Shown: piece after piece, positions 30,001 through 33,000 of the stretch
How positions within the stretch are numbered: position 1 is the first letter of the stretch
Layout: every line of letters starts with the position of its first letter
From: Candidatus Bathyarchaeia archaeon
GTDB lineage: Archaea > Thermoproteota > Bathyarchaeia > 40CM-2-53-6
Direction: 5' to 3'
Length of the DNA stretch: 64,000 bases
Assembly (NCBI GenBank): GCA_049513715.1
Contig: JBEKVV010000001.1
Coordinates: 384,001 to 448,000 of the forward strand
Program-made: the position numbers

Positions 30001-33000
30001 GCCGGACCATGAAACGGAAAACCATCCGTTTTCCAGGAGGAAGGTCGTCAACGCACTACTGGAGGAGTAGGCATGGTGGCGGCAATTGCACGTCTTGCGG
30101 AGTACCACTACGTGGCGTGCCTTCGGGTTCAAAACACGGTGTTGCAAAATCGTCGAGGCGACCGTCAAGAGCGTTCGGCGGTTTCCTGTGCGCCAATTGC
30201 CTTAAGGAAAGAGTCCGGCACCAGGCCAGAGTCGGATAGGGTTCTCCTTGCCGGGGCCCGTGATCACCGTCGGTGGCCCCCATGGAACAGGCAAATCCAC
30301 TTACGCCCGGGCACTGGCTGAAGCACTAGAACTACGGTACGTGTGCGCCGGAGAACTCTTCCGAGAGCTAGCGAAAGAAAAAAAGATGAGCCTCGAAGAC
30401 TTCAACGCCTTAGCAGCCGAAGACCCAACCATTGACAGAATAATCGATGAAAGGACCAAGACAGAGGCTAAGCAGGGAGGGGTAGTCGTTGACGCCCAAC
30501 TCGCCGCATGGATGGTGAAAGACCTCGCAACACTGAAACTTCTTCTGACCGCGCCGGACAATGTGAGGTTCAAGCGAATCGCGGACCGAGATCGAACAAC
30601 ATTGGCTGTGGCCCGTAAGGAAACCTTGACCCGTGAGTCGATTCAGAGACACCGATACAACGAGTACTATGGGATAAACACTGATGACCTGACCATATAC
30701 GACCTCAAGATTGACACAAGCCTTTACCCCAAAGAAAAGACAAAACACGTCGTCATTGACTCGGTCCGGAAGGCTCTGGACGGAATTAACGAAGGAAAGC
30801 CTGGGCATCAAATCGGTTAGACTTAATTAGTGCGCGGAATTCTAAGGCGGCAGACTACCCGCGTGATAAAAGATGCCAAGCATAGAAGTTGGAAGAATCT
30901 GCGTCAAGCTATTGGGCCGGGAAACCGGAAAGAAATGCGTAGTTGTAGATATGGTCGACAAGAACTTCGCCCTAGTCACAGGGCCGAAGGGCGTGACGGG
31001 AGTTAGGCGAAGAAGAACCAATGTGGACCACTTGGAACCGACACCTGAGATGGTGGAATTGAAGAAAGGCGCGCCAGACGACGAAGTCGAAAAGGCCTTA
31101 ACCAAAGCGAAGAAAACGAAATTCATGAAAGAAGACGCACTGCCCGCACAACAAGCCATCGCAAGCTGATTACAAGAAGCCCCCTCTGAATTTGCGGGGC
31201 CTCGCCGCTCCCGACGAATTTACCCTTTTCAAGAAAGTCGACTTCTTCTACTTAATAGCCGGAAAACCCCTTCAAGCCAGTGCGAGGTGAGCAGAGATTG
31301 CAGACTGCGTTGCCGTGGACGATTACAAGGGAACTCGTCACGAAGGTAGATGATGATTCTACTGACGCGAGGTATGGTTGTCGACCTGAGAGCAGAACGA
31401 TCTCACAGCAAATCAAATACGGAATCATAAATCTCGACAAACCTGGAGGGCCCTCAAGCCACGAAGTAGTTGCGTGGATCAAGCGCATGATGAAGCTGTC
31501 GCACGCCGGTCACGGTGGAACCCTAGAGACAGTAATGTCGGGGTAATCCGAAAGTCACCGGCGTACTTCCAGTGGCGCTCGAAGACGCAACAAAAGTCGT
31601 GCAAGGCTTTCTCTACTCGGGAAAGCAGTACGTTTGCGTTATGCAAGTGCATGCGGACGTGCCCGAGCAGACCCTCCGCAAAGTCCTAAGCGAATTCGAA
31701 GGCGAGATCTACCAAAAGCCACCTCTCAGGGCCTCGGTGAAAAGAGAACCAAGAAAACGCTACATCTACCGACTAGAAGTGCATGAAATCGACGGCCGTC
31801 AAGTCCTCTTCACGTGCTCATGCCAAGCGGGGACTTACATCAGAAAACTCTGTTCAGACATTGGCGAAGTACTTGCGTGTGGAGCCCACATGCGCGAACT
31901 CAGAAGAACACGCGCAGGCCCGCTTTCGGAAAATGATGGAATAGTGACTATGCACGAGCTCAGCGCAGCCCAATCTGAATTCGAGGCCGGCAACGACGCA
32001 CATCTCCGCGCCATAATCAAACCGATGGAAATCGCGCTGACTGCCCTCCCAAAGGTTGTGCTGCGCGATTCAGCTGTCGACGCAGTTTGTCATGGAGCTG
32101 AGTTAGCAGTTCCCGGCGTCGTCAAACTCGATTCCTCAATAGAGAAAAGCAAACCAGTTGCAATGTTCACCCTCAAAGGCGAAGCGGTCGCAATAGGAAA
32201 GGCACTCATGACCACGAGGGAGATCTTGGATCAAGAGAAAGGCGCAGCGGTAAGGACCGAGCGAGTCCTGATGGAAAGGAGTACTTACCCCGCTTTGTGG
32301 AAACACTGACACGACCTGCGAACAGGCTTTAAGTGCGGTTAGGAATTCTGGACAAATCGGTGCCGGGGTTCCCTAGCCTGGTAAGGGGCAGATTCAATGA
32401 AGCCCAAGCCTGGAATTAGGAAACCGTTAGCCTGTGGTCCTTTGGGGCCACGAGGGTTCAAATCCCTCTCCCGGCGCCATTCCCGAACTCTTATGTCGAA
32501 ACAGTCTTGCAATGCCAAGAATCGGGCTCACAATCCAAACCAATCAAAGTCCGGCTGTCGTTAAGCATCCAGACTAGACGCTGATCAGAAGTGAAATGGA
32601 GCCATTTCGAAACCTGAAAAGGCATCATTTCGCTCGCGAATAGGCACCATTTCAACCCACACGGGCCAGGTGCATCGTCTGTGGCCCGTTTTCCCTACTT
32701 TTTCATGCCGTTTTTCTGACGAATCGGTCGTATGCTCGTAATCTTTCAAGGCCAGCTTTGATTCCCATTTCTGCTTCAGGCATCTTGTGCTCGTCAAAGA
32801 AATCCTCAACCTCCTGAACTTTGCCGATTCCCAAGATGGGAATTAGGGATAGGAATACACCTGAGAGGGTTCCAGTACTTCGATAGAGCTCCTGAAGCTT
32901 CACTATGTTGGACTGCAGCCAGGTCCAGGCTACGTCCTTAGCTTGGGGCTTCTCGGTGGCCGCATAAATCGCCGAGATAACGTCTTGCCTTTTGACCTCG

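Follow-up and report, generated by a model that had tools for sequence, protein, structure and literature searches.

A Very Probable BHB Pre-mRNA Intron in the cbf5 Gene of a Mesophile-Like Bathyarchaeia Archaeon

The cbf5 Locus and Its Restored Reading Frame

The window analyzed here, a stretch of 64,000 nucleotides from a contig of a Candidatus Bathyarchaeia archaeon, carries on its forward strand a gene for the pseudouridine synthase Cbf5 that is spread over two open reading frames. The first extends from 31298 (or from a GTG at 31280) to 31546 and ends with the residues HAGHGGTLETVMSG before its stop codon, while the second lies in another frame, is open from 31545 with its earliest start codon at 31572, and runs to 32309. 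The ORF list thus bears out the genome-wide survey's note, which had described cbf5 as called as two genes in different frames. Pfam assigns the DKCLD domain (3.7e-18) to the first ORF and the domains TruB_N, TruB_C_2, and PUA to the second. A second cbf5 was not found in the genome, which is 99.4% complete, and the gene is single-copy.

Deleting the 19 nucleotides from 31527 to 31545 (AGACAGTAATGTCGGGGTA, forward strand) joins the two parts as ACC CTA G-AT CCG AAA (the hyphen marks the junction) and yields a coding sequence of 993 nt, equivalent to 330 amino acids without any internal stop. The conserved motif GHGGTL-D-PKVTG is recovered in the process, as the survey had claimed, with GHGGTLDPKVTG at residue 71, and residues 1-329 of the product can be aligned with a homologue that has no interruption. 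The insert interrupts the codon for this motif's catalytic Asp. Exon 1 (31298..31526, forward strand), as delimited from the ORF list, the DKCLD match, and tblastn mapping of the junction, starts with TTG at 31298, the GTG at 31280 also being in frame, and its last base is the G of the catalytic Asp codon; exon 2 (31546..32309, forward strand), which is supported by its three Pfam domains and by the open spliced frame, begins with the AT of that codon and includes the stop codon. Borders at 31528-31546 would be equally possible for the insert, because an A follows both cuts.

Downstream of cbf5, 53 bases from its stop codon and separate from the gene, begins a tRNA-Leu(CAA) gene with an intron of 27 nt (32362..32479, forward strand), which was found by ARAGORN with its intron option and remained undetected by ARAGORN with default settings and by Rfam in the ranges searched (30000-34000 and 31000-33000).

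Splicing Motif and Covariation

The whole splicing motif spans 31517..31549 on the forward strand, as indicated by its sequence, fold, register, and covariation. It consists of a central helix of 4 bp, in which CCCT of exon 1 (31521-31524) pairs with GGGG of the intron (31540-31543), and an inner hairpin GACA-GTAA-TGTC (31528-31539) with a stem formed by GACA (31528-31531) and TGTC (31536-31539). The helix separates two 3-nt bulges on opposite strands, A31525-G31526-A31527 and T31544-A31545-A31546, each of which would be cut after its second base, giving the rebuilt Asp codon and the frame of 330 residues; the same rule gives GAY in every insert-bearing locus read. All these helices and bulges are present as the survey had named them, and its remark that the outer helix is weak in the canonical register also holds: GGA (31517-31519) pairs with TCC (31547-31549), with A31520 either unpaired or paired to T31544, and in the strict register a single pair is left. 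The motif is of a relaxed, HBh'-like kind because of this weak outer helix, and the full label hBHBh' was withheld because, in strict register, 57 of 125 junctions have an outer helix of only 0-1 bp. The minimum-energy fold has a z value of -3.74, and none of 200 shuffled sequences folds as well; this fold favors a helix of 5 bp and a bulge of 2 nt over the canonical register, which counts against the latter.

Conservation of the structure is evident from 125 distinct insert-bearing junctions, in which all four pairs of the central helix are formed in the canonical register in 114 cases, three pairs in 10, and two in one. This adds up to 488 of 500 possible pairs, as compared to 345 and 349 when the partner strand is slid by one base. 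The most frequent helix is CCCT/GGGG (72 junctions), followed by CTCT/GGAG (13), CCTT/GAGG (7), CCTT/AAGG (4), and CTCT/AGAG (3). An inner hairpin of at least 3 bp is formed in 108 of these junctions. Among the 26 distinct junctions with a 19-nt insert, 88.1% of the cells are paired, and changes on both sides of a pair occur in 32 cells, a value expected at 8.1 +/- 2.8 from shuffling and reached in none of 500 shuffles, with each of the four hairpin pairs contributing. Exon and intron alike show compensatory changes that preserve the structure. As to the sequence itself, the last six bases of the intron and the last codons of exon 1 are under constraint: the Thr codon is ACY in all 128 intron-bearing genomes versus 25 of 42 genomes without the intron, and the Leu codon CTG occurs in none of the former versus 15 of the latter. 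The survey's description of a freely varying hairpin therefore applies to the inner hairpin only and not to these constrained positions.

Distribution of the Insert

Exon 2 was searched against 61 genomes of the order and matched 56. Both exons were available at 55 loci, of which 52 carry the insert and three do not (L044, L053, and L055, all from family f10); a further locus (L056) has no exon 1 due to a contig end and stands outside this count. Three additional genomes of the source organism's family also carry the insert, which raises the total for the order to 55 of 58, and within this family it is found in all 19 genomes read, including the other three read in the genus. The earlier counts, which had indicated that the insert is kept in most genomes of the order, hold and have grown. 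The length of 19-26 nt given by the survey agrees with gap lengths of 20-26, which include three letters of the Asp codon; the insert itself measures 17-23 nt in the order. The survey had also placed the intron in this order of Bathyarchaeia, which is correct, but it is not special to it, since the same site is occupied in many other Bathyarchaeia families (45 of 68 read, in a sample in which split genes are enriched) as well as in several further named lineages of the phylum. The nearest named relatives bear Bathyarchaeia titles.

A pattern scan of contigs, which covered the CCCT/GGGG type with ACN or TCN at the Thr/Ser codon and represents a sample that is silent on absence elsewhere, returned at least 121 stretches, including at least 113 verified loci with the same codon and phase occupied. 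Among the matches listed are Sulfolobus, Stygiolobus, Acidianus, Aeropyrum, Thermodiscus, Ignisphaera, Thermosphaera, and Thermogladius, as well as records of Caldarchaeales, Thermofilaceae, and Nezha-, Culex-, Brock-, and Marsarchaeota; the named records of Sulfolobaceae, Desulfurococcaceae, and Acidilobaceae have inserts in the identical codon and phase. Titles from Asgard archaea, Euryarchaeota, or DPANN do not appear among the at least 113 verified loci listed. Seven of the matches listed were rejected as chance hits, with titles such as Streptomyces, Paenibacillus, and Syntrophales.

It is unlikely, in our view, that the insert is a genuine BHB intron which was gained independently in Bathyarchaeia or transferred to them, with the exon context GGNACCCTAG/AYCC acting as a half-BHB hot spot. 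The conserved bases of the intron (GGGG plus two) coincide exactly with the positions that the exon dictates through pairing, and the inner intron sequence has nothing in common between the lineages, both of which speak for such a gain; because GGGG is forced in this way, sequence likeness alone fits common descent as well as repeated insertion. The Cbf5 tree (FastTree, a single gene, unrooted, and with biased sampling) contains 11 changes of the intron state, the direction of which can only be read with a root. Against independent gains, the 131 insert-bearing loci (the 125 distinct junctions) and the at least 113 verified named loci, two sets that may overlap, all share one phase, and an insert at any other position of cbf5 was not encountered in the loci read. 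Moreover, the intronless groups are small clades nested within insert-bearing ones, such as the f10 trio (support 98), and losses are a more parsimonious explanation than many gains at the same nucleotide. We infer descent from a common ancestor with the crenarchaeal intron, followed by several losses, the intron being probably ancestral to Thermoproteota.

RNA Evidence

The survey's caveat that RNA data were missing for the site is answered by a contig from a soil run labeled as metatranscriptomic RNA-Seq (X2), in which exactly the letters 31527-31545 are absent. It covers 31414-31588 with 156 nt, has 113 and 43 letters flanking the junction, and differs in one other letter. The finding of such an RNA-library contig is new here; it is one contig of low depth (3) from one RNA run, so that the evidence for the absence of the intron from mature RNA is thin. 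A second contig (X1, depth 2.4) stops at 31527 and continues with TCCGAAAG, the first letters of exon 2; this overhang of 8 letters is too short to count as bridging, and as the run is also flagged as possibly DNA, it is only a hint. The third contig (X3) is confined to 32037-32201, away from the junction. An unspliced form was not seen among the RNA-library contigs matched to the window, and the runs found for it hold small shares (0.05).

The spliced contigs may also be thought to stem from a close relative with an intronless allele whose DNA was carried into the libraries, whether or not the insert is an intron. The flag of the X1 run, which reads "RNA? (probably DNA)", and the low depths of both contigs fit this idea. 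X2, however, is labeled RNA-Seq and differs from the window in just one of its 156 letters, and carried-over DNA would be expected to show the unspliced form because all 19 genomes read in the family bear the insert, which makes such an origin very improbable.

Proposed Splicing Pathway and Host

Taken together, site and phase, fold, covariation, and the RNA contig support the survey's reading of the insert as the cbf5 BHB intron known from Crenarchaeota, and we consider it very likely that it is an archaeal BHB pre-mRNA intron at the crenarchaeal cbf5 intron site, which is spliced to give a Cbf5 of 330 amino acids. That cbf5 is instead broken, affected by a frameshift artefact of the assembly, or split into two polypeptides, as the two ORFs called in different frames may suggest, is hardly credible for the only cbf5 of a nearly complete genome, given that both exons are well conserved, the catalytic Asp codon itself is split, the first start codon of exon 2 comes only at 31572, and the insert recurs with compensatory changes in nearly all genomes of the order.

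In the intron reading, the transcript would fold such that CCCT of exon 1 and GGGG of the intron form the central helix of 4 bp with one 3-nt bulge on each strand, while the 4-bp hairpin closes the intron and the weak outer helix leaves a relaxed HBh'-like motif. A heterotetrameric (alpha-beta)2 splicing endonuclease would then cut between 31526 and 31527 and between 31545 and 31546, and the exons may be joined by RtcB, which would rebuild the catalytic Asp codon and thereby the complete Cbf5. As judged from the gene content, EndA and RtcB are the likely acting enzymes, and the genes for both are present. There are two EndA paralogues, located at C1:841.6 kb and C4:134.8 kb, with a mutual identity of 26%, each containing an N and a C domain, and one gene for RtcB. 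One of the EndA proteins is closest to the PDB chains 3p1z_B, 3ajv_B, and 2cv8_A; going by the Y/H/K positions, one paralogue is probably catalytic and the other structural. The nearby tRNA-Leu(CAA) would be processed by this machinery as well.

The genome looks mesophilic, in line with the survey's claim of a non-thermophilic host. The GC content of its 16S rRNA amounts to 58.9% and the IVYWREL fraction to 0.396, and soil-labeled runs yielded near-identical RNA contigs. A rough estimate of the optimum temperature by the formula 937 x IVYWREL - 335 is about 36 °C.

Implications for Archaeal mRNA Splicing

The literature treats protein-gene splicing in archaea as a matter of one gene in two thermophilic orders, whereas the intron described here resides in a mesophile-like Bathyarchaeia archaeon from soil. 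Many lineages of the phylum, moreover, have this nucleotide position occupied. A known kind of intron is thus present in a far wider, non-thermophilic range of archaea than papers describe, and support weakens for a link between the intron and very high temperature. The gain that Yokobori et al. (2009; PMC2738675) assigned to an ancestor shared by Desulfurococcales and Sulfolobales probably has to give way to an earlier origin followed by repeated loss. A practical consequence concerns annotation, which suffers in insert-bearing genomes because gene callers report an essential marker gene as two ORFs. The constraint on the exon codons beside the intron offers a handle on whether selection keeps it. 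Tentatively, and as a speculation, the intron may have been present in the ancestor that the Thermoproteota (TACK) share and been kept since then at one nucleotide position, in hot and cold habitats, not as a leftover but as a checkpoint by which splicing ties the synthesis of the rRNA/tRNA pseudouridine synthase to spare tRNA-splicing capacity, with losses occurring where this coupling is dispensable.

Comparison With Known Systems

For Sulfolobales and Desulfurococcales, the cbf5 pre-mRNA intron was reportedly described by Watanabe and coworkers in 2002 and Yoshinari and coworkers in 2006, and reports of a cbf5 intron outside these two orders were not found in the literature searched. An excerpt of a 2023 review likewise has the intron confined to a small group of related archaea (PMC10485636). 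The Bathyarchaeia intron resembles the crenarchaeal one, as portrayed in parts of Yokobori et al. (2009; PMC2738675), in many respects: both occupy the same gene and disrupt the codon of the same catalytic Asp residue of the TruB motif, the size is within the range of 16-44 bp, the BHB motif is relaxed, cleavage falls between residues 2 and 3 of the bulges, and the host has a hetero-oligomeric EndA. The exon context is also common to the named records of Sulfolobaceae, Desulfurococcaceae, and Acidilobaceae, with ACCCTAG before the first cut and GGGGNN and AY before and after the second. The difference lies in the host, which is here a mesophile-like Bathyarchaeia archaeon from soil-type samples, in contrast to the published range of two thermophilic orders.

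A further parallel exists with the non-canonical tRNA introns of Crenarchaeota, Aigarchaeota, and Thaumarchaeota, for which the portions consulted of two papers (PMC5829648, PMC3241643) give the motif classes hBHBh', HBh', and hBH and processing by an (alpha-beta)2 EndA, the enzyme that would presumably also act on cbf5 in Bathyarchaeia. Intron-bearing tRNA genes occur in the Bathyarchaeia genome as well, such as that for tRNA-Leu(CAA). Unlike in these tRNA introns, the cbf5 substrate is an mRNA, in which the cut has to restore the reading frame. In Haloferax volcanii, according to sections of Schwarz et al. (2020; PMC7714728), the tRNA splicing endonuclease similarly processes an mRNA, that of HVO_1309, whose BHB intron lies in the 5' UTR; there an untranslated leader and an alpha2 enzyme are concerned, whereas the intron in cbf5 lies within the coding sequence.

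An interrupted cbf5 gene and its spliced transcript

On the plus strand of the window, the cbf5 region (31298-32309) is divided between two ORFs in different frames, as seen in the ORF list and the sequence. The first ORF carries the DKCLD domain and ends with HAGHGGTLETVMSG and a stop at 31546, and the second frame, open from 31545, carries the TruB_N, TruB_C_2 and PUA domains (all Pfam); judged from their sequences, the two combined are one archaeal Cbf5, encoded by a single gene copy in the genome. The break lies inside the TruB motif GHGGTL-D-PKVTG, where the DNA reads ACC CTA G [AGACAGTAATGTCGGGGTA] AT CCG AAA (insert in the inner bracket). 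When 31527-31545 (19 nt) are excised, the Asp codon becomes complete and a 993-nt coding sequence for 330 amino acids without internal stops results. Residues 1-329 of its product align, at 55% identity and with two gaps, to a homologue from within the order that is not interrupted; borders at 31528-31546 are equally valid, because an A follows both cuts. Both the split into two frames and the restoration of Cbf5 by removal of 19 nt, as proposed in the genome-wide survey's note, are confirmed by the ORFs, their domains and the rebuilt open frame. The neighbours at 30248-31169 (+) and 32703-35069 (-) are a cytidylate-kinase-like gene, a 98-aa ORF without Pfam match and an M1-family aminopeptidase, the last of these downstream of cbf5 on the opposite strand.

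RNA evidence, which the survey had lacked, comes from three soil-labelled metatranscriptome runs of two studies, each containing a small share of the words of 31200-32400. One of them (X2, RNA-Seq) contains a 156-nt contig of depth 3 covering 31414-31588, in which exactly 19 letters are missing at 31527 and one other letter differs, with 113 letters to the left of the joint and 43 to the right. We read this contig as spliced cbf5 mRNA. An intronless allele with 99% identity to the window would give the same sequence, but is unlikely, since the insert is present in 19 of 19 genomes read from the window's family, among them all three other genomes read from its genus. A 231-nt contig of X1, a run of metatranscriptomic source but possibly DNA, covers 31305-31527 with six other differing letters and continues past 31527 into TCCGAAAG, with which exon 2 begins; it is a hint only, because eight letters are too few for bridging, and coverage in X3 stops short of the junction. 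An unspliced form was not found among the contigs of the three runs, which as contigs cannot prove its absence. In this Bathyarchaeia genome of mesophile-like character, the insert is the classic BHB intron of cbf5 and is spliced out at the RNA level, and the survey's reading of this gene is supported.

The genome also encodes two proteins (186 and 192 aa, 26% mutual identity) with the N and C domains of tRNA-intron endonucleases, one on the window's contig (contig 1) and one on contig 4, as well as one RtcB ligase. The best PDB chains for the first protein (3p1z_B, 3ajv_B and 2cv8_A, E 1e-39 to 1e-41) are presumably crenarchaeal catalytic subunits, and the second, far more distant, presumably lacks the catalytic-triad His, by our reading of the triad positions. 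By their sequences, the pair would fit an (alpha-beta)2 enzyme. Located 53 bases downstream of the cbf5 stop, at 32362-32479 (+), is a gene for tRNA-Leu(CAA) that encodes its CCA end and is interrupted by a 27-nt intron beside the anticodon; default ARAGORN and Rfam searches both gave no match there.

The splice motif and its constraint on the exons

The region 31505-31565 folds with -27.2 kcal/mol (z = -3.74 against dinucleotide shuffles, none of 200 equalling it). In the canonical register, i.e., a 4-bp central helix between two 3-nt bulges that are each cut after the second base, exon CCCT (31521-31524) pairs with intron GGGG (31540-31543), the bulges are AG|A (5') and TA|A (3'), and the inner hairpin is GACA-GTAA-TGTC, as the survey had described; the cuts restoring the frame coincide exactly with those expected in the bulges. 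The outer helix is weak, as likewise noted before, consisting of GGA/TCC with one unpaired A, and the minimum-energy fold differs in having a helix of 5 bp and a bulge of 2 nt, so that the motif counts as relaxed.

Both exons were read at 177 loci of the order, the class and the phylum, 131 of which bear an insert, representing 125 distinct junctions; two loci were dropped because of a run of N (L156) or a poor exon-1 extension (L185). L156 and L207 belong to one Bathyarchaeia record whose junction is duplicated around the N run, a scaffolding artefact at the intron. The insert follows the G of the Asp codon in every locus read. In the canonical register, all four pairs of the central helix are standard in 114 of the 125 junctions, three in 10 and two in one, adding up to 488 of 500 pairs, compared with 345 and 349 when the 3' partner is slid by -1 or +1. 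The inner hairpin begins immediately past the bulge and reaches 3 bp or more in 108 of 125 junctions; for the outer helix, 68 junctions have 3 bp or more and 57 have 0-1 bp. In the shortest inserts (11-14 nt; loci L115, L117, L122, L128-L130, L136, L138, L140 and L163) the inner hairpin is missing and the outer helices between the exons are long (4-10 bp), whereas longer inserts usually contain a hairpin and in many cases have a weak outer helix. The two types seem to be complementary relaxed variants of the motif. An unusually long same-site insert, of 76 nt, occurs in L113 (genome G301, junction near 1480), as against the published 16-44 bp.

Exon and intron covary in the central helix, which occurs as CCCT/GGGG (72 junctions), CTCT/GGAG (13), CCCT/AGGG (9), CCCT/GGGA (8), CCTT/GAGG (7), CCTT/AAGG (4) and CTCT/AGAG (3); synonymous changes of the Thr and Leu codons are thus matched by changes in the intron. 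Among the 26 distinct 19-nt junctions, 88.1% of the cells are paired and 32 are changed on both sides, compared to 8.1 +/- 2.8 in shuffles (0 of 500), with a covariation score of 0.294 versus 0.084 (slid registers at most 0.133) and both-side changes in all four hairpin pairs. All 128 insert-bearing genomes have ACC or ACT as the Thr codon, versus 25 of 42 intronless ones, and the Leu codon CTG is found in none of the 128 versus 15 of the 42; intronless cbf5 genes freely use ACA, ACG and CTG. The insert therefore shapes synonymous codon choice within a catalytic motif.

Distribution and host

A search of the order with exon 2 gave matches in 56 of 61 genomes, and of the 56 places fetched, 55 contain both exons (L056 ends at a contig end). 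The Asp-codon insert is present in 52 of these 55 loci, and the class search added three genomes of the window's family that carry it as well, bringing the order to 55 of 58 genomes with inserts of 17-23 nt, which bears out the survey's claim for most of the order. The three loci without it (L044, L053 and L055) all belong to family f10 and form one clade (support 98) beside two insert-bearing f10 genomes in a single-gene FastTree of Cbf5, midpoint-rooted for drawing only; this fits a single loss.

Across the class, 183 of 201 sampled genomes match an uninterrupted Cbf5 query. Among 68 genomes read outside the order, a set enriched for split genes, 45 from 17 families carry an insert (11-38 nt) and 23 do not; about 38 more appear intronless because of full-length matches without stops or extra length, with 29 others unclassified. 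One class genome (G129) has two full-length cbf5 matches on contigs C8 and C132, which may reflect contamination or a second copy. In a phylum sample of 301 genomes, many that are not members of the class showed either a pair of matches or a single match with internal stops, and all 30 such genomes picked, from 22 families, contain the same-site insert; the 16 top-scoring loci read outside the class are all intronless.

A pattern scan of named genomes, covering the commonest junction type only, gave at least 121 stretches. The 121 matches listed comprise 113 same-site cbf5 insert junctions and one cut by a contig end; seven were rejected as chance hits. By NCBI rank, the 113 junctions among the matches listed fall into Bathyarchaeota (37), Desulfurococcales (20), Nitrososphaerota (13), Acidilobales (9), Sulfolobales (6), Thermofilales (5), other Thermoprotei (3), unclassified Thermoproteota (11, one titled Methanomethylicota), Brockarchaeota, Culexarchaeota and Nezhaarchaeota (1 each) and unranked records (6, one titled Marsarchaeota). 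The Nitrososphaerota junctions listed include Caldarchaeaceae, Calditenuaceae, Wolframiiraptoraceae and one MAG titled Nitrososphaera, among others; the insert of Ca. Caldarchaeum subterraneum (Caldarchaeaceae) has 14 nt. Loci with the same-site insert outside Bathyarchaeia and the published orders (L201, L210, L211, L218, L219, L230, L241, L251, L274, L288, L291, L231, L256 and others) belong to these three families, the Nitrososphaera-titled MAG, Brockarchaeota, Culexarchaeia, Nezhaarchaeales, Methanomethylicota, Marsarchaeota and Thermofilaceae MAGs. In a Desulfurococcales MAG, two identical cbf5 junctions (L215 and L216) occur on opposite strands of the same contig, separated by about 3 kb, owing to an inverted duplication or an artefact of assembly.

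The named loci nearest to the window among the matches listed (L309, L228, L195 and L282; 82-85% identity across the portion of exon 2 that is present) are titled Candidatus Bathyarchaeia or Bathyarchaeota archaeon, and the class assignment therefore stands. The G+C content of the 16S rRNA (58.9%), an IVYWREL fraction of 0.396 in long ORFs and an almost absent charged-over-polar excess are values which we take to be mesophile-like, and the near-identical RNA contigs come from soil-labelled runs, in keeping with the survey's proposal of a cbf5 intron in a new class and a non-thermophile.

Relation to known cbf5 introns

In the available part of Yokobori et al. 2009 (PMC2738675), the cbf5 intron is confined to Desulfurococcales and Sulfolobales, with Thermoproteales, Cenarchaeum, Nitrosopumilus and Korarchaeum scored 0, and its gain is placed in the ancestor of the two orders. 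The accessible text of Schwarz et al. 2020 (PMC7714728) gives cbf5, in crenarchaeota, as the sole reported archaeal BHB intron besides their own 5' UTR case, and that of the Caldiarchaeum genome paper (PMC3082918) mentions tRNA and rRNA introns, with neither cbf5 nor pseudouridine appearing in it. We found no report of the intron in Bathyarchaeia or other lineages beyond the two orders, in a full-text literature that is thin for subscription journals, so that an earlier mention is possible.

The breadth of the distribution is the more interesting point: across much of Thermoproteota, a single nucleotide position of an essential gene carries the insert, and exon and intron co-evolve there. In the Cbf5 tree of 170 genomes, which is unrooted and based on biased sampling, the intron state changes 11 times, and genomes lacking the insert group in small clades that sit within insert-bearing parts of the tree. 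This pattern and the use of one shared position by all inserts speak for an intron of old age that has been lost repeatedly, suggesting that the cbf5 intron is ancient, kept and occasionally lost. The insert-bearing named records include Sulfolobus, Stygiolobus, Acidianus, Aeropyrum, Thermodiscus, Ignisphaera, Thermosphaera and Thermogladius, all of them genera or close kin of published cbf5-intron hosts, with insert sizes within the ranges seen in Table 1 of Yokobori et al. 2009 (PMC2738675). The insert of Bathyarchaeia therefore lies at the site known from the crenarchaeal intron.
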